IMG/VR virus record: IMGVR_UViG_3300020404_000006
From: a virus
Strand: one strand, 5' to 3'
Length of the DNA stretch: 64,000 nucleotides
Shown: positions 45,974-60,316 of the stretch, piece by piece
Numbering within the stretch: the stretch's first letter is position 1
Layout: every line of letters starts with the position of its first letter
Notes under the pieces: generated by a model
The model's input: the letters and a program-made list of their open reading frames with translations, nothing else
Told to the model about the DNA's origin: nothing
Database searches by the model: none
Made by a program: the position numbers and the translations under genes

Positions 45974-46660
45974 GTGAAAAAGTATTTTATCGATGAAGCG
46001 GAAACCTTCGCTATCAACACCCCTGTAGACGCAACTGTAGAACTCATGGGATGGGAGGAGTTCCCTGTAGTTTACATTGATAACTTCTACAAGAATCCAG
46101 ACAAGGTAAGGAATCTGGCATTAAGAACACCAGGCACCAAATGTCCCAGAATACTGGGTGGAGTTCCTGGCGAGAGAGTAGATATGAATATGAATCTTGA
46201 TCATATGCACGAAATATGGCTTGAAATAGCAGAGAACGTGTATGGATTAGAACAGAAAGATAGAAAGGCATTTGAAATGTCATGTATGAACGTCTCCTTT
46301 TCAGTCAATGTTACTCAGTCTCATTATAGAAGAAAAAAACCACATATAGATTTATCAGATGTATCGGACAGGGGATGGGCTGGTGTCGTGTATCTCAACA
46401 AACCCAAAGAATGTAAGGGTGGCACTGGGTTTTATACATATAAAGGACAACAAGTTAATCCTAGACAAGATGGAATATGGCAAGAGGAACATGTTTCAGA
46501 TAGTGTAGGTCCATGGGATCTGATACACCTTGCTGAGATGAAATATAACAGAATGGTAATGTATCCATCAAATGTTCTTCATGCCCCTTATGATAAGGAA
46601 GGATTCTTCACTGACGACATATACAGATTAACTCAAGTATTTTTTATACCACTAACATAA
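45974..46660 (+). CDS. DUF6445-like 2OG-Fe(II) oxygenase
   Basis: VVYIDNFYKNPD.VR, PHID, WAGVVYLN, GGTGFY, MKYNRMVMY...LHA; GTG start. Confidence 0.75.
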   Translation: MKKYFIDEAETFAINTPVDATVELMGWEEFPVVYIDNFYKNPDKVRNLALRTPGTKCPRILGGVPGERVDMNMNLDHMHEIWLEIAENVYGLEQKDRKAFEMSCMNVSFSVNVTQSHYRRKKPHIDLSDVSDRGWAGVVYLNKPKECKGGTGFYTYKGQQVNPRQDGIWQEEHVSDSVGPWDLIHLAEMKYNRMVMYPSNVLHAPYDKEGFFTDDIYRLTQVFFIPLT

Positions 46661-47529
46661 TGCACAATATTATTCTTACAGGATCAAATGGGTTTATAGG
46701 TAAAGCATTTGCAAAAAGAATTGGAGGTGAAAATTTATATCAAGTAGAACAATCACATGCTTTTGAGTTCTTGAATCAGTATGATAAGTGGGATGAGGTA
46801 GATTACATCCTTCATCAAGGAGCAATATCAAGTACAACTGAGACAGACGTAAGTAAGATTCACAAATACAACGTAGAGTTTTCAATCAAACTATTTGAAA
46901 AAGCAATAGAACACTCTATTCCAGTCAAATATGCCTCAAGTGCATCTGTCTATGGTAAGATACATGCTGACTTTGGATACTTAAAAGGAACTATCAATCC
47001 CTTAAATTTCTATGCACTGAGCAAAGCAACTGTAGATTATTGGGTTCTAGATCACATAGATGAGTTTGAATTGATACAAGGATTTAGATACTTCAACGTG
47101 TATGGAGAAGGTGAAGAACATAAAGGAGATCAAGCAAGTCCTATAAGTAAGTTTACCAAACAAGCAAAAGAGGATGATATAATCAAACTCTTTGAAGACT
47201 CAGAATATGCCTTTAGAGATTTTGTATGTGTAGATGATGTGGTAGATGTTGTCCTAGATAATACGGCAGGGAGCGGCATCTATGATGTTGGGACTGGCAA
47301 TCCTATCTCTTTCCAAGAGGTTGCAGAATTGATTGCCAAAAAAGAAGGGGCGGAGATTGAAGTAATCCCCTTCCCCAAACATCTAGAAGGTAAGTATCAA
47401 GAATATACATGTGCAGATACCTCATGGTATCAACATGATTATAAATCAGTATCCGAATATCTTAAATTACCAGCAACAACTACTCTACCATCACATTCAT
47501 TTTCTGGCACAGAATGTAGTTCATCTTGA
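46660..47529 (+). CDS. hldD: ADP-L-glycero-D-manno-heptose 6-epimerase
   Basis: TGSNGFIG, HQGAISSTTE, YASSASVYG, YALSK, GFRYFNVYG...HKG..AS are HldD-specific. Confidence 0.88.
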   Translation: MHNIILTGSNGFIGKAFAKRIGGENLYQVEQSHAFEFLNQYDKWDEVDYILHQGAISSTTETDVSKIHKYNVEFSIKLFEKAIEHSIPVKYASSASVYGKIHADFGYLKGTINPLNFYALSKATVDYWVLDHIDEFELIQGFRYFNVYGEGEEHKGDQASPISKFTKQAKEDDIIKLFEDSEYAFRDFVCVDDVVDVVLDNTAGSGIYDVGTGNPISFQEVAELIAKKEGAEIEVIPFPKHLEGKYQEYTCADTSWYQHDYKSVSEYLKLPATTTLPSHSFSGTECSSS

Positions 47530-47897
47530 AAAATGACACACATTCCTTCATGTGGTTGAATAATATATCCATCAAAGTTTAAAGGAGAACTGCCTGGCGG
47601 AGTAGAAACATAGTAAACAAATGAATACTCACTTTTGCCATGTCTATGTTCGTAAGCAAAATCACCGTAATTATATACAGCACCCCATAATTGATATTCT
47701 ATTTTATCTGAATCTAATTCTAATTTTTCTACAACCCAATCTTTTAACTTAATAAAAGGTTTAGGGTATGTATTGTATCCTGTATGTTTTTCTACTGCAA
47801 GATTAGTAAATTCATCTGTGTCATTAGGCAAAAAATCTATCCATGATCTTAGTTCTTTGTTCAGAGATAAATCAGGATAATCTACAATATCAATCAT
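47439..47897 (-). CDS. Putative 2OG-Fe(II) oxygenase
   Basis: EHRHG (HxH), SFVYYV, LHSV, RVVVAGNL. Confidence 0.7.
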   Translation of the reverse strand: MIDIVDYPDLSLNKELRSWIDFLPNDTDEFTNLAVEKHTGYNTYPKPFIKLKDWVVEKLELDSDKIEYQLWGAVYNYGDFAYEHRHGKSEYSFVYYVSTPPGSSPLNFDGYIIQPHEGMCVIFQDELHSVPENECDGRVVVAGNLRYSDTDL

Positions 47898-48495
47898 TGT
47901 ACATGGGCATATCGTAGTTTAGATTTATAAAAGCAGTTAGTATATACTTGTCGTGAGATATATTAATATTAGATCCGTGTGGGAACATCCAGTTACAGGG
48001 GAATATAAGTATTTTGCCTCTTTCACATCTACATCCAATATTCCAATCAGGAAAGAATGTTTCTCCTCCCTCATCCACATCATTTAGATATATGATGCAG
48101 GCAAATAATCTAGATATAGTTCCTCCATCTAGTTGATCTACATGAGTTTTAAATATACCTTCTCCCTTTGGATACACTCTGATTGTATAATCTAATATTG
48201 CAAGATCTGATGCTGGTAATACTGGTAGTTCGCATCTATAGTTCATGTATGCGTCTTGAATAACTTGTGTCATCAAGTTTGCATACTTATGGTTAGGTTC
48301 AAACTGAAATTGAGTACAATTTTTATGATCCTTGTTTACTAACTTACCTTTATATTCACCATCAATAAAATGTTCTACTTTGCCATCATCATGTAACTGT
48401 GTGTTGTCCCAAAAATATTTTATTAATTCATCACACTGATCTTGAGATAGAACATCTCTTTCAACATATATCATGTCGGTAATGTTCTCTATCAT
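47890..48495 (-). CDS. 2OG-Fe(II) oxygenase (prolyl-hydroxylase-like)
   Basis: HVD, IIYLNDVDEGGETFF, FPCNWMFPHG. Confidence 0.85.
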   Translation of the reverse strand: MIENITDMIYVERDVLSQDQCDELIKYFWDNTQLHDDGKVEHFIDGEYKGKLVNKDHKNCTQFQFEPNHKYANLMTQVIQDAYMNYRCELPVLPASDLAILDYTIRVYPKGEGIFKTHVDQLDGGTISRLFACIIYLNDVDEGGETFFPDWNIGCRCERGKILIFPCNWMFPHGSNINISHDKYILTAFINLNYDMPMYND

Positions 48496-48893
48496 ATAAG
48501 ATCGCCAGCTAAAATTCTATGTGAATCAGAATCCATATGTTCTGTACTGAACTCAAATAGTTCCGTATCTTCCAAAGCATACATTCTATGTTTTAGTCCA
48601 ATAGGTACATGAAATTTATCACCTCTTCTGAGGATCATAGTTTCTGCTTTCTCGATATCATCATCCCATCCGTAATATATTTTTATCTTTCCACTCTGAA
48701 CAAAAAATACTTCGTCTTTTAATTTATGATAGTGCCATGAACATTGTTTTCCTTTTACAATGTACAATAATTTGCCACAATACTTTTCACAGTTGGCGAT
48801 CCATTTTTCAAATCCCCAACCTTTTGCGACATATTTTACTGGTTCTGCTGCACGGGCATTACGAGGTCTTCTACTTGGTCCCAAAGAACTCAT
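48492..48893 (-). CDS. Cupin (sugar-phosphate isomerase-like)
   Basis: KGWGFEKW, SWHYHKLKDEVF, HVPIGLKHR. Confidence 0.8.
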   Translation of the reverse strand: MSSLGPSRRPRNARAAEPVKYVAKGWGFEKWIANCEKYCGKLLYIVKGKQCSWHYHKLKDEVFFVQSGKIKIYYGWDDDIEKAETMILRRGDKFHVPIGLKHRMYALEDTELFEFSTEHMDSDSHRILAGDLI

Positions 48894-49206
48894 TTGCGTT
48901 CACCCCCTTGTCATCTATAAAATAATCTGCATGTGGTTTACCTAGAATCAGAGAGTGATATCTACATCCCCAACTCTTAAGTTGTTGTTCTGTGAGGTCA
49001 AACAATAAAGCAGATGCTTTTACACTTGCATCTGGATCATCACCAAATCTACCCATACCACGGGCACTGAAATAAGTGATATGATTACCCTCATCATATA
49101 ATTTATTTATGACGGCAATACGAGCTGGCCATGATTGTGCTTTGGAGTAATCCCTACCCAATGTGGGTGTGCAGATAGTATTATCAATATCAAAGCAGTA
49201 CCTCAT
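48871..49206 (-). CDS. HAD-family phosphatase (capsule-biosynthesis type)
   Basis: CFDIDNTIC (DxDxT), SARG, GKPHADYFIDDK. Confidence 0.85.
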   Translation of the reverse strand: MRYCFDIDNTICTPTLGRDYSKAQSWPARIAVINKLYDEGNHITYFSARGMGRFGDDPDASVKASALLFDLTEQQLKSWGCRYHSLILGKPHADYFIDDKGVNANEFFGTK

Positions 49207-49910
49207 TTCTTGACCTCCATGTAATAAATGTCATCATACTGAACACTATTGAAGGTTGCAGTAATTCTCAAGCCAGCTTCCTCAACCATTGATCTAAATG
49301 TATCAGCACTAGATCCACCTGAGTGAAGTTGTAAACATATTGTACCATTATCTGAGAGTCTTGTCGATAGTTCATTAAACATATCTCTATGAGCATCCCA
49401 ATTTGCATCTAACAAAATTTCTGACAGGTGATTATCAAACAGGGGTGTCCCACCTAACTTACTCAAAGCTTTTATTGCATCTTCTTTACACTCAAAATGG
49501 GGAGGATTGCCTACAACTAGATCTATTTTGTGATCAGATAACACCGAACAAGTATCAGAATGATATATTGTTGTACGAGGAAAGACTCTTCTGTGATATA
49601 CAGTTTCTACATCTATAAGATCTAATCCATGTTTTATAAATGAATTCTCAGCAGTCTTCTTTGCTATCTCTACTGCTGGTTCAAATTTATCCAACAAAGT
49701 TAGTTGATCGCAAACATTAGCTGCCATCATTCCATAACCTATAAATCCAGGTCCACTACACCATTCCATGAGATGATGAACTCTGCCATAGTTTTCTAGA
49801 ACTAAGTTTAGATATTCTGGAAAGAAGTAATCTCCACCACCATTTGTTTCTGGCGTGTAGAAGATATCAGATCCATCTACTCTAAAAATATATTCAATCT
49901 TCGTCTTCAT
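49203..49910 (-). CDS. Class I SAM-dependent methyltransferase with NPP motif
   Basis: MEWCSGPGFIG (motif I), DLVVGNPPHF (motif IV). Confidence 0.85.
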   Translation of the reverse strand: MKTKIEYIFRVDGSDIFYTPETNGGGDYFFPEYLNLVLENYGRVHHLMEWCSGPGFIGYGMMAANVCDQLTLLDKFEPAVEIAKKTAENSFIKHGLDLIDVETVYHRRVFPRTTIYHSDTCSVLSDHKIDLVVGNPPHFECKEDAIKALSKLGGTPLFDNHLSEILLDANWDAHRDMFNELSTRLSDNGTICLQLHSGGSSADTFRSMVEEAGLRITATFNSVQYDDIYYMEVKK

Positions 49911-50118
49911 CTATGACTTCCATTTCTAATTCATGAACTTGATCATGAAATACTTTATGCTCTCCGATACGATAGAGGTGTTTCAACTCTCCATCCTTAT
50001 CTTCTTCTTCTCCCAAGTATTCAATATCAGGACAACTATGTTCACGCAACCACGCTTGCAGTCTGTGGTGCATTAGATCCGCTTTGCCTATCGACAGTTT
50101 TTCCATTTTCTTCTCCAT
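49894..50118 (-). CDS. Hypothetical protein
   Basis: Small acidic ORF, DLMHHRLQAWLRE; probable start near 50118. Confidence 0.55.
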   Translation of the reverse strand: MEKKMEKLSIGKADLMHHRLQAWLREHSCPDIEYLGEEEDKDGELKHLYRIGEHKVFHDQVHELEMEVIDEDED

Positions 50119-50881
50119 ATAGTGAGATAATATCACTCCTAGTCAGATAGTAAGCGCCAGGGTGAGTTACTGTAATTGCAGCGGCTTTATTTGCCAGTTC
50201 AATGGCCTTCCGCATATTTTTTGTTCTTAAAAATTCATAGACTAACGCTGATAGAAATGTATCTCCAGCACCACATACGTCAAAAACTTTTACAGGGTCG
50301 GGTTTAAATATGGTATTATTCCACATTGCGCCATCAGACCCAAGAGTAACGATAAGGTTACTGCTGTCAGGTACACTTTCTGGTACAAGGTCATCGTATT
50401 CTTTCTTGTTTATTTTCCAGAATACATTATCTTTGTTGAAAAGTCTACGCTTCTTTGTATCCACGAACACAGGTCTGTTAAAATTGTGACATAGATGCCA
50501 CAAATCTTCATCGTTAATGTATCCTTTGTCATAATCTGATATAACAATCGCATCAGGGTTCATGTGCATCAACGCCATTTTCAATTCTGCATTTGCAATT
50601 CTACTCACCTTTGGAGTTTCATCTAAACGCAATAACTGATAGCCACTGTTAGTATCTACAAATCTTGTTTTGGTTATAGGTTCTCTTTGTGAAAGCAGAA
50701 CAGTATTGATTCCAAATGCTTTGAGATTTAACTCAGTATTCCCTGCCATTCCAGGCTTTTCTTCAACCTTAGATTTGTCCAACACAGGTACAGGTTGTTC
50801 TGGACTCAACCTACTACATTCACCATAGATGTACTTGTCAGTACACTTATCACCTATAACAATTACGTTAAACTGTTGCAC
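50042..50881 (-). CDS. PfkB-family heptose-7-phosphate kinase (HldE N-terminal domain / HldA)
   Basis: RLSPEQPVPV, SDYDKG, VFVDTK, VTLGSDG, DVCGAGDTF. Confidence 0.88.
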   Translation of the reverse strand: MQQFNVIVIGDKCTDKYIYGECSRLSPEQPVPVLDKSKVEEKPGMAGNTELNLKAFGINTVLLSQREPITKTRFVDTNSGYQLLRLDETPKVSRIANAELKMALMHMNPDAIVISDYDKGYINDEDLWHLCHNFNRPVFVDTKKRRLFNKDNVFWKINKKEYDDLVPESVPDSSNLIVTLGSDGAMWNNTIFKPDPVKVFDVCGAGDTFLSALVYEFLRTKNMRKAIELANKAAAITVTHPGAYYLTRSDIISLYGEENGKTVDRQSGSNAPQTASVVA

Positions 50882-51270
50882 CTTACTTTTCTGATAATTT
50901 CGGTTGTTGAATAATTTAGGCGAGGTAGATACCTTATCTCTTTGGCAAATTGTCTGCCAACTACATCTCCACCTTTCCAGTCATCTCCTAACAATAGTAT
51001 ATCAGGAGAGTATAATTCTATCAACCCCTCCAATTCTGATCTATCGTTGAAGTAAAAAACTTCATCAATATATTTTATCGCTTGTAACATCGAAATTCTG
51101 TCACAAAGGTTATTGATGGGCTTAGTTTCACCCTTATCTTGACGTATCTTCTCATCCGTATCTGTTGCTACAATAAGTTTGTCTCCCAAAGATTTGCCTA
51201 CTTTAAATAATTCAATGTGGCCTGGATGCAAGATGTCGAAGGTTCCATTGCACCATACTATTTTATTCAT
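50863..51270 (-). CDS. Heptose-1-phosphate nucleotidyltransferase (HldE C-terminal domain / HldC)
   Basis: NGTFDILHPGHI, KGETKPIN...RISML, GDDW, YSTTEII. Confidence 0.85.
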   Translation of the reverse strand: MNKIVWCNGTFDILHPGHIELFKVGKSLGDKLIVATDTDEKIRQDKGETKPINNLCDRISMLQAIKYIDEVFYFNDRSELEGLIELYSPDILLLGDDWKGGDVVGRQFAKEIRYLPRLNYSTTEIIRKVRCNSLT

Positions 51271-52754
51271 TCTAATGTATCTAAATGTGTGATATATTGA
51301 CTCTGAATAACAGAGTTTGCTTGATTCTCACGCAAATCGTTATTTACAAAATTGAGAAATCTTGGGACTACGGTTAGGTCTTTTTTCCAATACTCTTTGG
51401 AGTTAATCTTATCTGTCATCAACTGTAACAACCATACATGCCAGTTAGTGCCATCAAAGAATGATCCTACCTTTCCTGTTTGAGGAGTTCTTATATTGGG
51501 ATCTTGAATATACTCCTCCATCAATTCTTGCATTGATGATTTCTTATATTTAGATCTAACATAATCCCAGAATTTACCTGTTCTACGGCAGTAAGAATAG
51601 TGCATATTGACATAATCTACTGCACTTTCATAACTACATTTCATCTTAGAATCATAGAAAGGTGCCTCTACTTTAGAATCAAAGTATCCACCAAAAAGAC
51701 TTTCTTCGAGATACTCCACACCTCTAATCATCAGTGCGAGTCCTGTACTTTCCAATGGTTCAATGAATCCAGCAGATAATCCAATAGGAATTACATTACC
51801 AACCCAAAAATTCTTGGCATATTGTGGTTTCCAATCAAGTAATCTCATTTCATCTGGTTTGATTCTACCATCCCAATGATCAGAGAACGCTTGTCTTACT
51901 TCATCTGGATCATTGATATCTCTATTGAAACAGTATCCTGTTCCTATTCTGGATCTTGTAGGAATCTTCCAAATCCAACCATGTTCTTGTGCAGGGCAAG
52001 CAGTATATGGATGTTGTTCTTTTCTATAATCTTCATACTTTACTCTACCAGCAAGAGCTGCATTGATATACAATCTGTCACTTAGATCGACATTATGTTG
52101 ACCAATAAGAAGTTGTTTCCAACCAGTGCAATCTATGAATATATCTCCAGTAATTTTTGATCCATCATCTAACACCAGTTCTTTTATATTTGACCTTGTT
52201 ATATCATCAGCATTGCCATCTCTGTAGATATCTACCACATCAGATTGGATATATTTGCAATAAGGTGTAGTATGTCTCATTAAAAATTGTACTAACTTTC
52301 CACAGTCAATTTGAAAGGCATAGGAATCATGTACATAATTGGTCTCAATCTTATTCTTCAAAGAAGAATTATACATTGGTGAGATATCTTTCAGATCATA
52401 TTTTTCTTGAAATGACTGCCATATATCATACAAAGGTGTTTTTGATTCACCTACGCTTGTGAACGAAAATGGATGCCAAATTTCTGCATCTTCATGTCCC
52501 CAGCCAGGAAATAGAATACCAGACTTAAATGTTGCATCTACTTCTTTCAACCAATCTGTAGGTTTGTATCCCATCATCTTCATGACATTTGGGAAACTAA
52601 GAAGAGTTGCTTCCCCCACACCAATTCTTTCTGGTTCGGACTTATCAATAATTACAACCTCAAAATGATTTGCCCATCTACGAGCAAACCAAGATGCAGT
52701 AATCCATCCAGCAGTTCCGCCGCCAACAATAACTAATCTTTTAATTCTTTTCAT
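51267..52754 (-). CDS. Flavin-dependent halogenase (tryptophan-halogenase family)
   Basis: GGGTAGW, IGVGEAT, ATFKSGI (catalytic Lys), GWIWKIP (WxWxIP), GFIEPLESTG. Confidence 0.9.
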   Translation of the reverse strand: MKRIKRLVIVGGGTAGWITASWFARRWANHFEVVIIDKSEPERIGVGEATLLSFPNVMKMMGYKPTDWLKEVDATFKSGILFPGWGHEDAEIWHPFSFTSVGESKTPLYDIWQSFQEKYDLKDISPMYNSSLKNKIETNYVHDSYAFQIDCGKLVQFLMRHTTPYCKYIQSDVVDIYRDGNADDITRSNIKELVLDDGSKITGDIFIDCTGWKQLLIGQHNVDLSDRLYINAALAGRVKYEDYRKEQHPYTACPAQEHGWIWKIPTRSRIGTGYCFNRDINDPDEVRQAFSDHWDGRIKPDEMRLLDWKPQYAKNFWVGNVIPIGLSAGFIEPLESTGLALMIRGVEYLEESLFGGYFDSKVEAPFYDSKMKCSYESAVDYVNMHYSYCRRTGKFWDYVRSKYKKSSMQELMEEYIQDPNIRTPQTGKVGSFFDGTNWHVWLLQLMTDKINSKEYWKKDLTVVPRFLNFVNNDLRENQANSVIQSQYITHLDTLE

Positions 52755-53218
52755 ATTAAGTTACCTGATAATACGCATCTACCATTATGATTACTAGGAG
52801 GGACGCAATGTGGGAGATCGTTATCCCATATCATACAAATACCTTGGTTAGGATACATTGTAGTCTGTTTACCTTTCATTGGATCTTCAGCAAAAATTAT
52901 TGATGAACTATTTTCTGGCACCTGTATGTAATAAACAAATGAGTATCTAAAATCTCCCATATGTAAATGCCATTTTATACCACCACCATCATAATACCAA
53001 ACTCCCCATATGTCTTCTAATATAGTATCTGTTGTCTCTTCTATCCACTTTATAAATCTTTGAACTGCTAGTGAACTTTCGATTCCTTTTACTATGTGAC
53101 AATTCTCAGATCTTTCTGCATAACTCTCTGCTACAGGAGAAGTAACATTAAGAATCGCCCCCATTAATTCAGTGTTATCTTCTTGATATGGGTATGCGTA
53201 TTCTTTTATTTCCCTCAT
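52751..53218 (-). CDS. Putative 2OG-Fe(II) oxygenase
   Basis: KWHLH, SFVYYI, LPHCV, RCVLSGNL; paralogous to 47439-47897. Confidence 0.7.
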   Translation of the reverse strand: MREIKEYAYPYQEDNTELMGAILNVTSPVAESYAERSENCHIVKGIESSLAVQRFIKWIEETTDTILEDIWGVWYYDGGGIKWHLHMGDFRYSFVYYIQVPENSSSIIFAEDPMKGKQTTMYPNQGICMIWDNDLPHCVPPSNHNGRCVLSGNLI

Positions 53219-55020
53219 CAGTTCTTTACTTCGATCATGAGACCATATTCAGGCAGATAGAGGTATTCTATCAAACTGTTTGCAAGAGTCCTTAGAGCGT
53301 CGTCTAGGGTCTCCACAAGAGGTTCTCCGCCTAGGTTGAACGATGTGTTGAAGATAATAGGGCATCCTGTCTTCTCGTAGAAGGTATTGATTACATTATA
53401 GTAATTTGGATTTACTTCTTTGGTAACAGTCTGTATTCTACATGTATCATCAACATGAATAATTGCTGGAATCTTTTCTTTGATTCCGTCCTGACATTTA
53501 ACTGCATACATCATGAATGGAGTTTCATCCATACCACGAAGATCGAACCATTCATGAACATGTTCTTTGAGAATAGAACCAGCAAAAGGTCTGAAGTATT
53601 CACGACGTTTGATAGTATTGACATGATCTTTACCATCTGGATCTCTAGGATCATACATGATTGATCTATTACCCAATGCACGAGGACCTGCTTCTGACTT
53701 ACCTTGGAACATTGCAACAATATTTTTCTTCATAATCAAATCAACTACGTCTTCATCCGTTGCCTCAAAGATTCTAGTTGCATCATAATAGTTAGCAAGA
53801 TCTGTAATATATTCTGTATCGTATTCATACTTAGGTCCATAATATAGATCGGTAATGATGGGTTTTACCTCCTTATCTTGTGTCACTTTATGATAGTGCC
53901 AGTATGCAGCACCGATTGCAGTTCCAGCATCATTACTTACTGGTTCCACAAATAGATTAATACCTTCACCTTTTAATTGTTCAAGATACCAATAGTTTGC
54001 AACACAGTTCAATCCATATCCACCAGAGAGAACAACATTCTTTTCACCACTCATCTTAACTGCCTTACGAATCAAATCCAGAACCATCTGTTCTGATTCT
54101 ACTTGAATCGCATAAGCCATATCTCTACGATTATCTAACTTCGTAATATCTTTTACTGTGCTTGGATCTTGAGGTTCTCTCAATTCTGTAAATCTACCTT
54201 TGTTTACTATTGCTCCATTAGGATAGGTGGGTACAATAAGATCTCTATTGGTAGTAGTCCAATCACTCATACCATCATAGTCGGTGTAGATATCTGGTAT
54301 CTTTAAATTCTGTTGACCATATGGGAATAGTCCCATAGTTTTTCCAGCTTCAATCGGAGCCCATCCACAGTATTGTGTTACTGCTTCGTATGCCTTAACA
54401 ATTCCAGCAGAGTCATCTATAATCAATTCATGAGTGCCTTCTTCATCTTCTCTTTCAGATGGGAAATTAGGTATTTTTGCAGCACCCCAAGGACCTCTAC
54501 CTCCCTGATGTTTGTATAGAGTTTTGAATTTATCGGGATAGGCACAATTAATAATAGTTTCCAACTCCCATGTCATTTCCTGTTCACCATCAATCTGCAT
54601 AGGAATGAATGTCCCTGCACCGTCTACTATAACGGATACTGCACTCTTAAATCCAGATCTATAGAAAGCACAAGAAGCGTGAAGTTTGTGGTGAATATGA
54701 CTGTAATCTACAACTTGAGGATGTTTGTAAACATCTGCATTACGATCAATGAGACCTAGTTTTCTTGCAAGAGCAACGTAGACAGGTTCTCCTGTAAAGT
54801 CATTTCTCCCAGCTTCATCTAAAGGTTGCGTGTGTGCAACTACAAGATAATCAAGTGTATCGGTATAATCCAATATCTTAATCATGGAGGCAAAAGGACC
54901 TCCATCATATTTCTTTCTTGATAATCTCTCTTCTTCAATAGAGAAAACTAATTGTCCATCTTTCAGTAGGCATACACCAGAGTTGTGACCTCTAGCGATT
55001 GCAGCAATCCATTGTGTCAT
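53218..55020 (-). CDS. NodU/CmcH-family carbamoyltransferase (copy 2)
   Basis: GHNSG, IEEERLSR, HHKLHA, VDGAG, AGKTMGL, GPRALGNRSI, REYFRPFA, FNTSFN. Confidence 0.92.
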   Translation of the reverse strand: MTQWIAAIARGHNSGVCLLKDGQLVFSIEEERLSRKKYDGGPFASMIKILDYTDTLDYLVVAHTQPLDEAGRNDFTGEPVYVALARKLGLIDRNADVYKHPQVVDYSHIHHKLHASCAFYRSGFKSAVSVIVDGAGTFIPMQIDGEQEMTWELETIINCAYPDKFKTLYKHQGGRGPWGAAKIPNFPSEREDEEGTHELIIDDSAGIVKAYEAVTQYCGWAPIEAGKTMGLFPYGQQNLKIPDIYTDYDGMSDWTTTNRDLIVPTYPNGAIVNKGRFTELREPQDPSTVKDITKLDNRRDMAYAIQVESEQMVLDLIRKAVKMSGEKNVVLSGGYGLNCVANYWYLEQLKGEGINLFVEPVSNDAGTAIGAAYWHYHKVTQDKEVKPIITDLYYGPKYEYDTEYITDLANYYDATRIFEATDEDVVDLIMKKNIVAMFQGKSEAGPRALGNRSIMYDPRDPDGKDHVNTIKRREYFRPFAGSILKEHVHEWFDLRGMDETPFMMYAVKCQDGIKEKIPAIIHVDDTCRIQTVTKEVNPNYYNVINTFYEKTGCPIIFNTSFNLGGEPLVETLDDALRTLANSLIEYLYLPEYGLMIEVKN

Positions 55021-55024
55021 AATC

Positions 55025-56311
55025 TCAATCTTTCTTTTCTATAGTAATTGCGTTATCTTTATCGGATTTTAACAGATTTTTAATTTCAGATTGGAAACCT
55101 TTCTTATTCTTTGGTTTTTTTGGTTTTTGTGGTTCCATAGTAAAGGTAGGTTTAGGAGCACCACTCATCAAAGGATTAGTTGTTTGTGTTGCAGAAGGAT
55201 TCCAATTTGGAGGTGAACAAGATTGTCCCTGATTTGGAATTAAGTTATTTAAACCTGATTGCATTGGTGATGCAATTCCTTGTCCCATCTGTGGTTGCGT
55301 TGGTGCTTGTTGTTGAGGTGAACAAGATTGTCCCTGCTGTTGTGGGGGAACGTAAGTACCAGTATATGATTTTGGTTTACCTAATCTCTTCTTACAAGAT
55401 GCAATGATTTCATCAATCTGTTTCTTACTTAGTTCCATCGCTTCATCATTGAAACGATCTACTCTCTCATCCATTGCAATTCTGATAGGAGCATACTCTC
55501 TACGACCATCTCCCACATCAATAATATCAAAGTCCTTGTGGCCTGGATAACTAATGTTCTCTGGGTATGTTGAACCAATCACAACAGTTGCAGTCTTATC
55601 AAATGCTCTTGCAATGTGTTGACCCATACTGTCACATCCTAAGAAGTGATCAGCAATCTCAATCACACCAGCCCAAACTCTCATATCTGAAATTTGAGGT
55701 CTAGCAATAGGATATTTGTCTTCATTTTCCTCGGTTGGGAAATGAATCTCACTCATCACAATCACTCCATAGTCTTTCTTAAGAGCGTTGATGATATCTA
55801 CAACTCCTGTAAGAGCCATACTTCTGGAAGTTGGATCTGCAATAAACTCTCCCATCTGTTCAACAGATCTACCAAAAGGTTGAACAACAATTACTTTGTC
55901 TTTTTTAGTAACAGATTTGATTTCTTCAACGATATTATAGGCAGCAATACTCTCTGTTTTATTGAGATGAATTGTAGGTTTAGGAAGTTCTCTGGGTTCT
56001 TCTAACCCATTGATTTCCATATCATATGCTTGTGCTAGATTGCACTTCTGATTGTAATAGTGCCATACTCTGTATGGTTCTGGACTCTCGCAATCCCTTT
56101 GTTTAACGTGTTCTTGGAATACTCCTTTATGCCAGTGGTCGTAAACCCTACTATCTAATGTAGGATGCCCTTTGAAGAAATCAGTACCACCTTCACAAAT
56201 GATGACAAAATCATCATGAGTTTCTGCATATTTTTCAAATGCTGGTATTGAACTTATTACTCTCCCTGCCCCACCATTGACGAAGAATGCTTTTGATCTC
56301 ATAGTTCTCAT
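55025..56311 (-). CDS. GT9-like (ADP-heptose heptosyltransferase-type) glycosyltransferase with Q/P-rich C-terminal tail
   Basis: GGAGRVISSIPAF (cf. GD-l---P), IVVQPFG, and ADHFLGCDSMGQHIARAFDKTATVVIGST (cf. GT9 DSG--H-A-A------lfGpT). Confidence 0.65.
   Translation of the reverse strand: MRTMRSKAFFVNGGAGRVISSIPAFEKYAETHDDFVIICEGGTDFFKGHPTLDSRVYDHWHKGVFQEHVKQRDCESPEPYRVWHYYNQKCNLAQAYDMEINGLEEPRELPKPTIHLNKTESIAAYNIVEEIKSVTKKDKVIVVQPFGRSVEQMGEFIADPTSRSMALTGVVDIINALKKDYGVIVMSEIHFPTEENEDKYPIARPQISDMRVWAGVIEIADHFLGCDSMGQHIARAFDKTATVVIGSTYPENISYPGHKDFDIIDVGDGRREYAPIRIAMDERVDRFNDEAMELSKKQIDEIIASCKKRLGKPKSYTGTYVPPQQQGQSCSPQQQAPTQPQMGQGIASPMQSGLNNLIPNQGQSCSPPNWNPSATQTTNPLMSGAPKPTFTMEPQKPKKPKNKKGFQSEIKNLLKSDKDNAITIEKKD
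55210..55336. repeat. Exact 22-nt direct repeat (55210-55231 and 55315-55336) encoding QGQSCSP twice
   Basis: GAGGTGAACAAGATTGTCCCTG occurs twice, 105 nt apart, in frame. Confidence 0.9.
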
Positions 56312-56329
56312 AATTCCTATAGTATATAG

Positions 56330-56989
56330 TCACATAAAAAATACCTGTGCCAGACGAGGATATTCCTTGAACATCTTTCGATTTATGTCTGCTCCGTGGG
56401 TACATTCAGCTTCATACATTACCATTCTATTATATTTCATTGGACATGTAAATGTTATATCATTTCTTATGTTGTAATCCCCATAAGCATGATCTTCCAT
56501 ATATTTGTAAAAATCTGTTCCTCCCTCAGATTCCTCATCCTTGTTCAGATAAACTAGAGCAGCCCAACTGGAATCTGCATCTTTATGGTGAGTAAAACAA
56601 TAAACTGTTTTATTGAATCTTTCGTTTATATCTTTATTAGTTGTATGATTGACCCAGAACTTTTGACTGTCCCATCTATAATCAAACATTCCCTCACTAA
56701 ATTGCAGATTTGTCCACTCTGGATGTTGGCAGAGTTCTTTGAAAACTGGTTTCAGATTCTCAACCATGTCTGGCCTATCTTCAACAACTCTCGTTCCTAT
56801 AAGACCGCCACAATGTTCTTTGTCACTTTTTCTATCACACGATAACGCATAATCCCTGACTTCATCAGGATTTTTGTAGAAATCATCTACTACAAATACC
56901 TTTCTCCACTTGTAACCAGAGTCATTATATCTGTCGTAGTCGTAGCATCTTTTTATTTCAGTAATTGTGACTGGATTTACTTCAAACAT
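56330..56989 (-). CDS. DUF6445-like 2OG-Fe(II) oxygenase (paralogue of 45974-46660)
   Basis: VVDDFYKNPDEVR, HHKD, WAALVYLN, GGTDFY, MKYNRMVMY...HGA. Confidence 0.75.
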   Translation of the reverse strand: MFEVNPVTITEIKRCYDYDRYNDSGYKWRKVFVVDDFYKNPDEVRDYALSCDRKSDKEHCGGLIGTRVVEDRPDMVENLKPVFKELCQHPEWTNLQFSEGMFDYRWDSQKFWVNHTTNKDINERFNKTVYCFTHHKDADSSWAALVYLNKDEESEGGTDFYKYMEDHAYGDYNIRNDITFTCPMKYNRMVMYEAECTHGADINRKMFKEYPRLAQVFFM

Positions 56990-56994
56990 GTAAT

Positions 56995-57023
56995 AAAAAA
57001 GATCCCCTTATTAGGAGGATCTT
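56995..57023 (-). terminator. Rho-independent terminator after tail chaperone
   Basis: AAGATCCTCCT-AATA-AGGGGATCTT followed by a T run. Confidence 0.75.
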
Positions 57024-57051
57024 AGTGATGTAATTTATATATAAAACTAAT

Positions 57052-57837
57052 TTAGATAGAATTAGGTGGTTCCCATGCTTGTCCAGTTTCTGAATCAGGG
57101 TCTCCTTGGTGAGGAGGATTTTGGAATCCAGGCTCAAAGGGGAACATCAAGTCAGCGAAGTTAGGATGAACGCCAGCAGCAATCATTTTGTTAGGAAGAT
57201 CTCTCAATGACTGACGGTATGCTTTCCACTGATCTTTAAGTGCATCGGGCATATCTTCTGCAATCTGGCCGTCACTATTAGAAAGAACACTGTCTCTATG
57301 CTTTCTGACATGTTCCCATGTCTTGTCCTCATCAGTACCGTTTAACTTCTCTCTAGGAGTGAATTGACCGATAGTAATGTCATCAGGTCCAGCACTGCCA
57401 GGATTTGCAACTCTGATAGTATCCCAGTTGTAGATGTCATCAGGGAAGAGTGTTGAAGAATATGTGAACTGAGGATACACACCTCCATCTACATCTGGAG
57501 AGCCAGGATGGTTGAGATCTGTACCAGCACCTCTGTCTTCTTCTTTCTCGTTTACAACGGGTCCTCTTAACTGACAGATGAGTGTGTGTAGATCAGATCT
57601 AGCACAATCAACTTCATACCACTGAACTACGTCAGCTGGTTTTGGACGACCATCTGCGATGTCATCTTCTGTGAGAGGTCCGTATACCTCTTTTCCTTCT
57701 GCATTGATTTGCAGAAAAATCTTGTCGGGACCATCATAAGTTTGGTCTCTCTGGTTTCCATCAGACATAGAGTGGTCTGAAAGGAAAGCGTTCGGAAGAT
57801 TTAACTTCCACTGTCTTTCGATAATTTTTGTTGCCAT
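57052..57837 (-). CDS. Tail-fibre assembly chaperone-like protein
   Basis: C-terminal WEHVRKHRDSVLSNSD...WKAYRQSLRDLP...FP pattern. Confidence 0.75.
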   Translation of the reverse strand: MATKIIERQWKLNLPNAFLSDHSMSDGNQRDQTYDGPDKIFLQINAEGKEVYGPLTEDDIADGRPKPADVVQWYEVDCARSDLHTLICQLRGPVVNEKEEDRGAGTDLNHPGSPDVDGGVYPQFTYSSTLFPDDIYNWDTIRVANPGSAGPDDITIGQFTPREKLNGTDEDKTWEHVRKHRDSVLSNSDGQIAEDMPDALKDQWKAYRQSLRDLPNKMIAAGVHPNFADLMFPFEPGFQNPPHQGDPDSETGQAWEPPNSI

Positions 57838-57869: not shown

Positions 57870-57877
57870 TATTTATA
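57870..57877 (-). promoter_or_regulatory. T4-type late promoter TATAAATA
   Basis: Exact consensus upstream of the chaperone, abutting a terminator. Confidence 0.75.
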
Positions 57878-57924: not shown

Positions 57925-58713
57925 TTAGACGTAAGTGATCTTAACGAGTCCTCCTCCACCTTGTCCGCCTTGTCCACAACACCTACCACAGTAGTTACTG
58001 TTTGCACCTTGACCACCGTGTCCGTATGGAACTGTCCAGCAACCACAACGCATCCAACACTGTCTTTGTCCGTATGAAACACCAAGAGTTCCGATGAATG
58101 GAGCACCTGTTGGTAATCCTTCATTATAGAAACAGTGACAGTTGAATCCGTCAGGTCTGTATGAGTTACCACCGTGGTTACCCATTCCGAAGTCTCCTCC
58201 GTGAGCGCCAGGTTGCATACAGCAAGTATGGAATTCTGAATAACAGTTTGCAGACCAGTCACCAGTTGCACAACCTCTAGTACCACCTAAGGCACAGAAG
58301 TTAGAGAGGTTATATCCATTTACATAGGAGTTACATCCGCAACACCCTGTACACTCTCTAGAACAACAACGGTAAACACCAGCAGCACATACAGTGTATG
58401 AACATCCAGCAGTTGTACTAATAGTTTTAGTATTGTAGTATCCACCACCAGCACCATGCCAGTTTTGACATCTGTTACATGAACACGCACCGTGTCCATT
58501 TCCCCCAGAACCCCAGATTTCCCAAGTGATTCTTGTTACTCCAGTTGGAACTTGCCAGTTGCAACAACAGCCAGGTGTGCAATAACATGGATGACCATAC
58601 ACCCATTTTACACACCAGTTAGAGAATGAACCAGCTTGAACTTTTGAACTACCGATCGTTGAATCAATAATTCTCTCGTTAGTAACTTTTTTATAACTTG
58701 AATAAGTAGCCAT
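57925..58713 (-). CDS. Cys/Gly-rich tail-fibre-associated protein, paralogue 3
   Basis: 30 Cys in 262 aa; WGSGGNG and GQGGQGGGGLVKITY glycine-rich motifs. Confidence 0.8.
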   Translation of the reverse strand: MATYSSYKKVTNERIIDSTIGSSKVQAGSFSNWCVKWVYGHPCYCTPGCCCNWQVPTGVTRITWEIWGSGGNGHGACSCNRCQNWHGAGGGYYNTKTISTTAGCSYTVCAAGVYRCCSRECTGCCGCNSYVNGYNLSNFCALGGTRGCATGDWSANCYSEFHTCCMQPGAHGGDFGMGNHGGNSYRPDGFNCHCFYNEGLPTGAPFIGTLGVSYGQRQCWMRCGCWTVPYGHGGQGANSNYCGRCCGQGGQGGGGLVKITYV

Positions 58714-58722
58714 TTCTTCCCC

Positions 58723-59517
58723 TTAGAAGTATGTAATTTTGACAAGTCCGCCACCGCCAGTACCACCCTGACCGCAACATCTACCACAATATGTAGACAT
58801 AGCACTTTGTCCGCCGTGACCGTAAGGTACGATCCAACAACCACAACGAATCCAACATTCTCTAATAGACTGAGTAACTTGTGTACCAATCAACGGTGCA
58901 GAAGTAGGTCTCTGACCGTAGTGATAACAGTGACACCAACCTCTGTAGGTATCGTGTCTAGATACAGACCAGATAGAACCGTGGTTACCAATTCCGAAGT
59001 CTCCTCCGTTTGTACTGGGACCTCTACAACATGTGTTAACTGATTGACAAGAGGTTGTCCAACTTGGGTTAGCGTTACCTCTACATCCTCCGATAGCACA
59101 GAAGTTAGATAAGTTGTATCCATTTACATAGGATGAACAACCTATACAACCATAACACTCTCTAGAGAGACATGGGTAAACACCAGCAGCACAGATACTA
59201 TATCCACAATTACTATTGGTTGTAATCATTTTGGAGTTATAGTATCCTCCACCACCAGATTGGAAGTGTTGGCATCTGTTACATGAACAGGAACCAGTAC
59301 CATTTCCTCCAGCACCCCAGGCCTGAACCCACATGTTGTTCACACCTGTTGGTACTGACCAGTTGCAGCAACAACCTGGCGAGCAACGGCACATTGTACC
59401 GAATACCCATTTTACGCCGTAGGTACAGTTCGGAGATCCACTAAAACTAGTAGCACTGAGGATATTATCCTCTAATTGATCTCCATTAATTTTTTTGTAT
59501 GATGAATAACTTGCCAT
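58723..59517 (-). CDS. Cys/Gly-rich tail-fibre-associated protein, paralogue 2
   Basis: 28 Cys in 264 aa; same motif order as its neighbours. Confidence 0.8.
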   Translation of the reverse strand: MASYSSYKKINGDQLEDNILSATSFSGSPNCTYGVKWVFGTMCRCSPGCCCNWSVPTGVNNMWVQAWGAGGNGTGSCSCNRCQHFQSGGGGYYNSKMITTNSNCGYSICAAGVYPCLSRECYGCIGCSSYVNGYNLSNFCAIGGCRGNANPSWTTSCQSVNTCCRGPSTNGGDFGIGNHGSIWSVSRHDTYRGWCHCYHYGQRPTSAPLIGTQVTQSIRECWIRCGCWIVPYGHGGQSAMSTYCGRCCGQGGTGGGGLVKITYF

Positions 59518-59929
59518 TTCTGTTTAATTCCTAGACGTAAGTGATTCTTACAACACCAGAGCCGCCTTGACCGCCCTGACCACAACAACGACCACAATAA
59601 GAAGTCATCGCACTTTGTCCACCTGTTGCATAAGGAGCAGTCCAACAACCACAACGTGACCAACACTGTTCAGCCATAGTCTCAACACCTTCCGATGTTA
59701 AGAATGGAGCACCTGATGACATTGTGTTTGTAACCGCACCAGTACAGTGACAGTTCCAGTGACCTGACCAACCTTTTTGGTGAGGAGACATTGCGAAATC
59801 TCCACCCCATGTTCCAGGCGATACACAACAGAAGTGTCTAGATGTACATCTAACTGTCCAGTCGGGGTTCGCACAACCTCTTGCACCACCAATAGCACAG
59901 AAGTTAGATAAGTTGTATCCATTTACATA
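59093..59929. repeat. Exact 38-nt repeat shared by paralogues 2 and 1 (59093-59130; 59892-59929), degenerate third copy near 58292-58326
   Basis: ATAGCACAGAAGTTAGATAAGTTGTATCCATTTACATA is identical in otherwise diverged genes. Confidence 0.9.
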
Positions 59930-60316
59930 TGAGGTACAACCTTGACATCCGTTACATTCTCTTGAACAGCAACGATAAACTCCACCAGCACATACAGTAT
60001 ATTGACAACCAGCAGCGGTACTAATTGTCTTAGTATTATATGTACCTCCAGAAGGAGCTTGGAAGTGTTGACAACGGTTACATGAGCAGAACCCATTACC
60101 GTTACCTCCAGCACCCCAGAGTTCGATAGTTAACTTACCTACACCAGATGGGACTTGCCAATAACAGCAACAGCCTGGTGTGCAATAACATGGATGTCCG
60201 TAGAACATCTTGACACAATAATCAGGGGTCACACCCGACGCTAACTTCGAGATTCCGATGGATCCCGAAGTTATTTGGTCTGATCTTACTTTTCTATATG
60301 ATCTATAGTTGGCCAT
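59531..60316 (-). CDS. Cys/Gly-rich tail-fibre-associated protein, paralogue 1
   Basis: 29 Cys in 261 aa; same motif order. Confidence 0.8.
   Translation of the reverse strand: MANYRSYRKVRSDQITSGSIGISKLASGVTPDYCVKMFYGHPCYCTPGCCCYWQVPSGVGKLTIELWGAGGNGNGFCSCNRCQHFQAPSGGTYNTKTISTAAGCQYTVCAGGVYRCCSRECNGCQGCTSYVNGYNLSNFCAIGGARGCANPDWTVRCTSRHFCCVSPGTWGGDFAMSPHQKGWSGHWNCHCTGAVTNTMSSGAPFLTSEGVETMAEQCWSRCGCWTAPYATGGQSAMTSYCGRCCGQGGQGGSGVVRITYV

Follow-up and report, generated by a model that had tools for sequence, protein, structure and literature searches.

What do the sugar-modifying enzymes encoded beside the tail-fibre genes of ocean cyanophages act on? We examined this question in a stretch of viral DNA of 64,000 nucleotides (IMG/VR record IMGVR_UViG_3300020404_000006, hereafter the window), in which an island of enzyme genes at 45974-56989 is flanked on one side by the neck genes gp13 and gp14 and on the other by a chaperone-domain protein, three cysteine- and glycine-rich (Cys/Gly) paralogues of ~262 amino acids (aa) and a long fibre gene. 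The island shares 86.9% DNA identity over 95% of its length with Synechococcus phage S-SSM7 (Lipsvirus, Kyanoviridae), and its gene order is that of S-SSM7 open reading frames (ORFs) 119-134, which are syntenic and likewise lie between the gp13/gp14 neck genes and the tail-fibre region. Because of this identity and the matching gene order, we assign the window phage to the T4-like cyanomyoviruses. A preliminary description of the window had taken the whole island for one joint pathway that decorates virion proteins. Based on our comparisons, the island is better described as a mosaic around one conserved functional unit than as a single 14-gene pathway. Within that unit, a transferase with the fold of glycosyltransferase family 9 (GT9) and an adjacent carbamoyltransferase form the fixed core of the island, always next to one type of fibre module. 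We tentatively propose that the acceptor is a fibre protein of the virion, a reading to which we give a probability of about 0.42.

The transferase is a 428-aa protein whose own sequence gave no match in Pfam or NCBIfam and no direct match in the Protein Data Bank (PDB). In a metagenome protein collection, 2645 proteins are related to it at E<=0.001, and the best 120 of these are 60-99% identical to it. In a diverse alignment of 72 GT9-family sequences, drawn from a 50%-identity library, 46 of the 72 homologues match PF01075 (Glyco_transf_9) at E<=0.1 (best 1.2e-8). The profile of these homologues aligns the segment FiGiDSvGqH to WaaF 247-292 and WaaC 239-287, at the nucleotide-sugar motif D-S-x-G-x-x-H, with D227 and H232 the same in all sequences and S228 in almost all. 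With the same alignment, AlphaFold predicts residues 1-320 at a predicted local distance difference test (pLDDT) score of 96.3, whereas an alignment of 22 close relatives gave just 47. The predicted structure is a GT-B fold of two Rossmann domains with GT9 topology. Over 250-280 residues, its structural Z scores are 22.7 to the Veillonella GT9 protein 3tov, 20.8 to WaaF, 19.7 to TibC and 18.5 to WaaC; every solved GT9 protein scores between 18 and 23, against at most 12 for other GT-B folds. The catalytic domain spans residues 1 to ~320 and is followed by a low-complexity tail of ~100 aa rich in Gln, Pro and Ser (320-428) with a conserved Lys-rich end. Because of the PF01075 matches of its homologues, the WaaF/WaaC motif profile, the pLDDT and the structural Z scores, we accept the protein as a divergent GT9-fold heptosyltransferase; the model supports this assignment well, and the branch shows up in profile and fold comparisons rather than with the curated Pfam model. 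The label of GT9-like transferase in the preliminary description agrees with this structure.

Three further observations concern this fold. A subunit of the chloroplast supercomplex of NADH dehydrogenase-like complex and photosystem I (NDH-PSI; 7wff_a, 9grx_1, 7f9o_6) reaches a Z of 18 to it, about as WaaC does, a reminder that the GT9 fold can persist without transferase activity. The homologue P0263 (558 aa) has a GT8 domain fused to its GT9-like domain; the product in the organism that encodes it may thus carry two sugars. The fold was also considered as a means of telling lipopolysaccharide (LPS)-type from protein-type GT9 enzymes and was rejected for that use, as the scores for WaaF and TibC differ by only about 1 Z unit.

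The core pair and the adjoining fibre module are laid out as follows.

53218-55020, minus strand: carbamoyltransferase (both Pfam domains; T4-GC303)
55025-56311, minus strand: GT9-fold transferase, 428 aa (T4-GC302, phrog_8954; assigned by fold and homologue profile)
57052-57837, minus strand: fibre-assembly-chaperone-domain protein, phrog_9740 (Phage_tail_APC, E 3e-10; phrog_4912 and phrog_4697, tail fibre assembly)
57925-60316, minus strand: three tandem Cys/Gly-rich paralogues of ~262 aa (phrog_4205, Gly_rich_2)
60368-64000, minus strand: long tail-fibre gene, running off the window (S-SSM7 orthologue annotated as tail fibre protein)

The carbamoyltransferase combines a Kae1-like N-domain with a YrdC-like C-domain, both above their Pfam cut-offs (Carbam_trans_N 94.6 bits, cut-off 24; Carbam_trans_C 201.5 bits, cut-off 27). 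Its closest solved structures are NovN, TobZ and GdmN, which carbamoylate hydroxyl groups, mostly on sugars, and by domain architecture it is an O-carbamoyltransferase of the NodU/TobZ/NovN type. To follow this gene across phages, we mapped all window proteins onto 80 viral contigs that carry the GT9 gene at 54-100% identity; 60 of these loci have enough sequence for the neighbours of GT9 to be read, and 37 have at least 9 kb downstream of it. The carbamoyltransferase lies directly downstream of GT9 in 60 of 60 IMG/VR viral loci, and the two are also adjacent in all 13 divergent loci from genome bins, where the identity of GT9 falls to 38%. In Pseudomonas, WapO (PA5005) carbamoylates the heptose residue HepII, and WaaC/WaaF together with WapO give 7-O-carbamoyl-L,D-heptose (PMC8005017). 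Because of the relatives of the carbamoyltransferase and this GT9/carbamoyltransferase precedent, we consider an O-carbamoyl-heptose glycoconjugate the likely product of the cassette. One locus (L165:3034-6740) has the order GT9, carbamoyltransferase, second GT9 paralogue. The contigs L155-L167, which are phage-like and carry the fibre/GT9 cassette, come from bins labelled Woesearchaeota, Polynucleobacter, Methanobacteriota, Flavobacterium and others, and are probably mis-binned viral DNA.

Equally constant is what lies upstream of the pair. The Cys/Gly paralogues, which share conserved Cys, Gly and Trp columns in their alignment and are rich in Trp and Tyr, precede GT9 in every one of the 60 loci, and the chaperone-domain gene does so in 50. 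In the reciprocal direction, loci picked by their Cys/Gly proteins carry the GT9 pair in 46 of the 46 that have room for it; this test covers the 80 best Cys/Gly loci, all of one broad clade, and the low-complexity filter of BLAST lowers its sensitivity for these proteins. Across 50,697 phage records, Cys/Gly homologues were found only in records that also have a GT9 gene. Four isolates share the same core order, namely S-SSM7, P-SSM2 and S-CAM1, which belong to three genera, and the unclassified Sf-FS3. P-SSM2 and S-CAM1 carry Cys/Gly relatives (phrog_35878 / phrog_4205), and S-CAM1 also has phrog_9740 immediately upstream. Most of the 13 genome-bin loci have fibre-like, Cys/Gly and chaperone-like genes upstream, and in the most divergent loci, where these are no longer recognisable, the gene just 5' of GT9 matches tail-fibre-assembly families. 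In the N4-like Vibrio phage SBP1 a distant GT9 homologue is flanked by tail-fibre genes on both sides, and in the Aeromonas myovirus HJ05 another stands behind a fibre-like gene and ahead of the sheath gene; neither has sugar or carbamoyl genes with it. The preliminary description had placed the island beside fibre, Cys-rich and chaperone genes within the structural region and had expected it to occur together with the fibre module across phages; the flanking genes are as it described, and the counts for the pair and for the Cys/Gly proteins bear the expectation out.

Which sugar the transferase uses is suggested by five further genes of the island.

46660-47529, plus strand: HldD-like epimerase (TIGR02197, E 1e-63)
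48492-48893, minus strand: cupin (Cupin_2, E 9e-9)
48871-49206, minus strand: small phosphatase of haloacid dehalogenase (HAD) type, 111 aa (PDB 9iqw, E 1.3e-13)
50042-50881, minus strand: PfkB-family kinase, heptose-7-phosphate kinase-like (TIGR02198, E 8.8e-40)
50863-51270, minus strand: heptose-1-phosphate adenylyltransferase-like protein (TIGR02199, E 9.6e-30)

The kinase is nearest to D-glycero-beta-D-manno-heptose-7-phosphate kinase (HldA / RfaE domain I; TIGR02198 136.8 bits, curated cut-off 345) and the adenylyltransferase to HldC / RfaE domain II (TIGR02199 103 bits, cut-off 181.5). The epimerase, encoded on the opposite strand in all relatives, is a short-chain dehydrogenase/reductase resembling ADP-glycero-manno-heptose 6-epimerase (TIGR02197 215 bits, cut-off 274.6). 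The phosphatase is a capsule-type enzyme and not a GmhB of the HAD-IIIA class (best solved relative 9iqw, a capsule-biosynthesis protein; TIGR01689 capsule phosphatase, E 5e-4), and we regard it as a candidate GmhB analogue. Among the 37 loci, kinase and adenylyltransferase are each present in 27, always together; the cupin and the epimerase are each found in 26 and the phosphatase in 24. The five genes are all-or-none in that they occur in 24-27 of the 27 kinase-bearing loci and in 0/10 loci without the kinase. A lineage without the module (L071 type) has a canonical GmhB heptose-bisphosphate phosphatase in its cassette (E 8e-41), and this gene and the co-located module together point to ADP-heptose as the donor of the GT9 enzyme. 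No match to SIS_2 (PF13580), the family of the sedoheptulose-7-phosphate isomerase GmhA, was found in the complete S-SSM7 genome or the nearest viral record. Since S-SSM7 lacks a SIS protein of GmhA type and the cupin stays with the module throughout, the cupin is a candidate non-orthologous replacement of GmhA; its matches to sugar ketol-isomerase cupins are weak. The same five genes occur in S-SM2 (L152), P-TIM68 (L153) and S-T4 (L154), there without a GT9 gene; the module appears to be mobile and would therefore supply different transferases in different phages. The S-SM2, P-TIM68 and S-T4 clusters also hold transketolase-like, alcohol-dehydrogenase, aldolase and several glycosyltransferase genes beside hli genes and tRNAs, and look like a different, larger glycan pathway.

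The remaining genes of the island encode tailoring enzymes.

45974-46660, plus strand: DUF6445 / 2-oxoglutarate (2OG)-oxygenase-like protein (PF20043, E 1e-16)
47439-47897, minus strand: 2OG oxygenase A (PF13759, E 1.6e-6)
47890-48495, minus strand: 2OG oxygenase B, prolyl-4-hydroxylase-like (2OG-FeII_Oxy_3, E 1e-8)
49203-49910, minus strand: methyltransferase, HemK/PrmC-like (MTS domain, E 8.5e-6)
51267-52754, minus strand: Trp-halogenase family protein (PF04820, 279 bits)
52751-53218, minus strand: small 2OG oxygenase C (weak sub-cut-off Pfam matches)
56330-56989, minus strand: DUF6445 / 2OG-oxygenase-like protein (PF20043, E 6e-9; phrog_1644), first gene past the terminator

Functions were assigned by Pfam, PHROG, NCBIfam and PDB comparisons of the translated ORFs, and every function that the preliminary description had named was found where it had been placed. 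Its five oxygenases are the two DUF6445 proteins and the three small 2OG-Fe(II) oxygenases. Its count of 13 contiguous ORFs is corrected to 14, mostly overlapping, tightly packed and for the most part on one strand; a doubtful 80-aa ORF at 49894-50136 would make one more. The two DUF6445 proteins said to bracket the island are both present, but they are just 31% identical as a pair. A 528-aa ORF at 25771-27357 lies outside the island.

These tailoring genes come and go between lineages. The halogenase, flavin-dependent and of the cyanophage VirX1 type (PF04820 over residues 6-439; best solved relative VirX1, 6qgm, E 6e-52) and oxygenase B (closest solved structure a Bacillus anthracis prolyl 4-hydroxylase, E 2e-8) are each present in 25/37 loci, oxygenase C in 5/37 and the methyltransferase in 3/37, confined to the S-SSM7 subgroup. 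Oxygenase A (152 aa) was found in 0/37 loci and solely in the window and the identical contig L007; its ORF shares 91 nucleotides (nt) with the 3' end of the epimerase gene, on the opposite strand, and S-SSM7 does not have it. The DUF6445 gene at 56330-56989 has counterparts upstream of GT9 in 35/60 loci and that at 45974-46660 in 24/37. S-CAM1 has seven core genes and no oxygenase, halogenase or methyltransferase, and the P-SSM2 cassette has no halogenase. Beyond the cassette, 2OG oxygenases are present in 14/16 cyanomyovirus genomes (presence/absence table of Sullivan et al. 2010, PMC3037559), and halogenases in that table are also listed for several cyanophages that have no GT9 gene by tblastn. 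We therefore regard the halogenase, methyltransferase and oxygenases, on their distribution, as lineage-variable add-ons and not as required parts, although they may share a target with the core pair. The joint pathway of all island genes put forward in the preliminary description does not fit these frequencies; as for the assortment of the genes among relatives, the core pair stays adjacent throughout, whereas the accessory genes assort independently.

Two observations concern possible substrates of these enzymes. The Cys/Gly paralogues have a conserved HGGQ(G/S) near their C-terminus, and the island methyltransferase (TIGR03534, E 2e-6, far below cut-off) contains VVGNPPHF, with an NPPH motif, like the glutamine-amide methyltransferase PrmC/HemK. 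The substrate motif of PrmC is GGQ, which makes the pairing no more than suggestive, in a gene found at so few loci. No collagen-like repeats that could serve prolyl 4-hydroxylases as substrates were found in the part of the long-fibre translation within the window.

When might the cassette be expressed? The boundary towards the fibre module and the copies of the late-promoter core are as follows.

56999-57039, minus strand: boundary element, with TATAAATT at 57039-57032, then a hairpin and T-run terminator at 57023-56999, before the ATG at 56989
6117, 10093, 29799, 32327, 33089, 33171, 34168, 35897, 41877, 49104 and 57870, minus strand: copies of ATAAATA (window scan)

The terminator ends 10 nt ahead of the ATG at 56989, and TATAAATT lies upstream of the hairpin, not downstream. 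The late-promoter-like word reported at 57032-57039 is indeed present, on the minus strand, but it is not enriched (TATAAATW has 11 copies in the window against 9.2 expected) and precedes the terminator, and we rejected this copy as evidence of late expression. The ATAAATA core has 11 copies, all on the minus (coding) strand and fewer than in shuffled sequences (17.5 +/- 4.1), a pattern like that of a word that has a function and is otherwise avoided; of these copies, that at 49104-49110 falls within the island, in the phosphatase ORF and 211 nt ahead of the cupin start. The chaperone-domain gene has its own TATAAATA at 57870-57877, the canonical T4-type late promoter word. Among relatives, TATAAAT is retained in 24 of 71 distinct intergenic sequences at the boundary, and the hairpin is retained with different stem sequences, that is, with compensatory changes (L004-L151), ATATATAA being conserved just ahead of it. 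Promoter words differ between lineages: after the terminator, S-CAM1 has CATAAATA and several distant loci likewise have (N)ATAAATA; P-SSM2 has, shortly before its GT9 gene, a sigma-70 promoter (L002:13940-13985) that overlaps a TATAAATC word; and L077, L081 and L083 have ATAAATA followed by TTGCAx-17-TATAAT. The promoters of P-SSM2 and of the last three loci look like dual early and late promoters.

Taking these data together, we propose that the kinase, small phosphatase, adenylyltransferase and 6-epimerase, with the cupin standing in for the missing GmhA, would provide a phage-encoded supply of ADP-heptose. The GT9-fold enzyme would move heptose onto the acceptor, and the adjacent NodU/TobZ-type enzyme would O-carbamoylate the transferred heptose, giving O-carbamoyl-heptose as on HepII of the Pseudomonas LPS core. 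The acceptor would be a component of the fibre module, and the transferase pair would act as a maturation step of the receptor-binding apparatus. The Cys/Gly paralogues, which are fibre-tip-like, are the candidate acceptors, with the long fibre as an alternative and the chaperone-domain protein as a possible partner. The LPS of marine Synechococcus has neither heptose nor 3-deoxy-D-manno-oct-2-ulosonic acid (Kdo) (PMC4515613); the host thus offers no canonical GT9 acceptor, which would also be why the phage brings its own donor pathway. A virion target is made plausible by the unbroken linkage to one type of fibre module and by a place behind fibre chaperones that recurs in unrelated phages, as well as by the single transferase and the absence of glycan-export genes from the cassette, and the prolyl-4-hydroxylase-like oxygenase and the HemK-like NPPH methyltransferase are hints of protein-directed chemistry. 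The most specific version of this proposal is a long shot; it has the Cys/Gly fibre-tip proteins, across a widespread set of marine phages, O-heptosylated and carbamoylated by a cascade of phage enzymes, in some lineages also hydroxylated, halogenated or amide-methylated, with ADP-heptose that the phage brings because the host does not make it. The structural proteomes to which Sullivan et al. 2010 (PMC3037559) refer are those of S-SM1, S-PM2 and Syn9, and none of the three is among the phages with a tblastn match to the GT9 gene in the phage records.

Several observations weigh against a fibre acceptor. The acceptor is read from gene neighbourhood, and most of that neighbourhood evidence comes from related phages, in which the arrangement could have been inherited once. 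By fold, the protein is as close to LPS-type as to protein-type GT9 enzymes, and the structural alignment spans only TibC 89-392, the phage protein beginning at the Rossmann core, without the N-terminal extension of TibC. Every heptose-pathway match is below its NCBIfam curated cut-off, and the donor modules of S-SM2, P-TIM68 and S-T4 sit in polysaccharide-type clusters with other glycosyltransferases, far from fibres. The conserved terminator stands as an insulator between cassette and fibre genes, and in P-SSM2 the promoter before GT9 is a near-consensus sigma-70 promoter of early type (TTGACT-17-TATAAT). Because promoters differ by lineage, late-only expression of the cassette is not supported. 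Finally, an enzyme that edits the receptor would equally be expected to be linked to its receptor-binding module. Receptor-modifying genes also tend to adjoin tail genes in other phages.

This last point leads to the standard LPS or cell-wall reading, in which the cassette adds carbamoyl-heptose to a glycan or glycolipid of the host surface during infection; it could thereby mask the receptor of the linked fibre and block superinfection or the loss of progeny on infected cells and debris. The literature labels the genes in this way (PMC3037559, PMC7378029, PMC12801897), the nearest known chemistry, in which GT9 enzymes and WapO make carbamoyl-heptose, is an LPS-core pathway, and the GT8-GT9 fusion is of a kind typical of glycan builders. 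The polysaccharide-type clusters with the heptose module, the P-SSM2 promoter, the terminator and the expected co-inheritance of a receptor-editing enzyme with its receptor-binding module all fit here as well. We nonetheless consider a host-surface target rather unlikely: heptose and Kdo, the canonical GT9 acceptors, are absent from marine Synechococcus LPS, the cassette has a single glycosyltransferase and encodes neither a flippase nor a polymerase nor any membrane protein, and GT9 is found behind fibre-chaperone genes even where the phages have diverged strongly or, as in the N4-like group, are strictly lytic. Improbable to a further degree is the view that all 14 genes form one pathway of hydroxylation, heptosylation, carbamoylation, methylation and halogenation on a virion protein. 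The genes are closely packed on mostly one strand, oxygenases, DUF6445 and halogenase recur within the cassettes of several lineages, including the divergent L071 type, a prolyl-4-hydroxylase-like oxygenase and a HemK-like methyltransferase are present, and Trp and Tyr are abundant in the Cys/Gly proteins; against this stand the independent assortment of the accessory genes, their absence from S-CAM1, a halogenase that in P-SSM2 lies outside the cassette, and the occurrence of 2OG oxygenases in most of the tabulated cyanomyovirus genomes and of halogenases in several in which no GT9 gene was found.

Two further explanations dispense with a fibre or host-surface acceptor. The product of the cassette might be soluble, for instance ADP-heptose or a carbamoylated derivative of heptose, and might act on the metabolism or signalling of the host; or the genes might be weakly selected 'stuffer' DNA, as raised by Sullivan et al. 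2010 (PMC3037559). The carbamoyltransferases closest in solved structure do act on small molecules (novobiocin, tobramycin, geldanamycin) and the island has no scaffold synthase, yet we hold these explanations to be very unlikely: a GT-B transferase presupposes an acceptor, conservation of the proteins is strong, as the thousands of GT9 relatives and the high identity of the best of them attest, and order and adjacency are fixed across lineages at 38-100% identity. It is extremely unlikely that the sugar and carbamoyl groups are placed on bases of the phage DNA. Phages do glycosylate and otherwise decorate hydroxymethylated bases, but Pfam scans found no base-hydroxymethylase or TET-type partner in the cassette, which tracks the fibre module and not replication genes, and to our knowledge no GT9 enzyme acts on DNA.

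The cassette genes are among the long-unexplained "auxiliary" genes of ocean cyanophages, and the GT9 family has thousands of relatives in marine metagenomes. If the fibre-module role is true, part of the inventory of LPS genes and auxiliary metabolic genes of marine viruses would become virion-maturation genes, and glycan-decorated receptor-binding proteins would become a host-range factor of cyanophages. O-carbamoyl-heptose on a protein would be a novelty in biochemistry; on the most specific version of the proposal, the fibre-tip proteins would be the first proteins to carry carbamoyl-heptose and the first phage adhesins to be tailored by enzymes. If a host glycan is the target, lytic marine phages may be editing the receptor, as the close coupling of the cassette to a single type of fibre would then suggest. 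As S-SSM7, P-SSM2 and S-CAM1 were isolated on named host strains, the acceptor question is directly testable.

How does this cassette compare with known systems? The genes of the island are those of the 'LPS gene cluster' of S-SSM7, P-SSM2 and S-SM2 (PMC3037559). Sullivan et al. 2010 called them "LPS genes", noted that three phages have T4-GC304, 305, 307 and 308 together and that a functional link between these genes is probable, and left open whether they are functional genes or stuffer DNA (PMC3037559); later papers keep the LPS or cell-wall label (PMC7378029, PMC12801897). In that study, in contrast to ours, an LPS target was assumed, T4-GC302 was not annotated as a transferase, and no link to fibre, Cys/Gly or chaperone genes was reported. 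A limited literature search found no paper that names T4-GC302 a heptosyltransferase or describes a fibre linkage or virion decoration for the cassette.

With the Pseudomonas LPS core, the phage system shares a GT9 enzyme, a NodU-type carbamoyltransferase and, by prediction, an ADP-heptose donor and the product O-carbamoyl-heptose. The Pseudomonas acceptor is Kdo2-lipid A, which is absent from marine Synechococcus, and the Pseudomonas genes lie in a core-oligosaccharide cluster, whereas those of the phage lie with the tail-fibre module and without heptose kinases of the WaaP type. Compared with the canonical GmhA-HldA/E-GmhB-HldC/E-HldD pathway, the phage has homologues of the kinase, adenylyltransferase and epimerase that travel together, but it has the 111-aa capsule-type phosphatase, a cupin as fifth invariant member and, in S-SSM7, no GmhA. 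The best solved relative of the island halogenase, VirX1, comes from cyanophage Syn10, and the halogenase is accessory in the cassette.

The bacterial autotransporter heptosyltransferases (BAHT) TibC and AAH use ADP-heptose, are encoded beside their protein substrate and add single heptoses to protein. They have an N-terminal extension with an iron-finger motif and form dodecamers, and no carbamoylation occurs in BAHT systems. TibC and the phage protein have the GT9-like GT-B fold in common at ~12% identity. BAHT genes adjoin the gene of their substrate, and the phage GT9 always adjoins fibre-module genes, which by their position are candidate substrates. Among viruses, chloroviruses decorate their own structural proteins by means of virus-encoded glycosyltransferases. 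Virion glycosylation is also described for mycobacteriophages (Freeman et al. 2023, as cited in PMC12801897). These two systems use other glycosyltransferase families and sugars, and their glycans have been demonstrated experimentally, while any decoration by the phage cassette is predicted from its genes; their targets are the capsid or the tail tube, and the target that we propose for the cyanophage cassette is the fibre.

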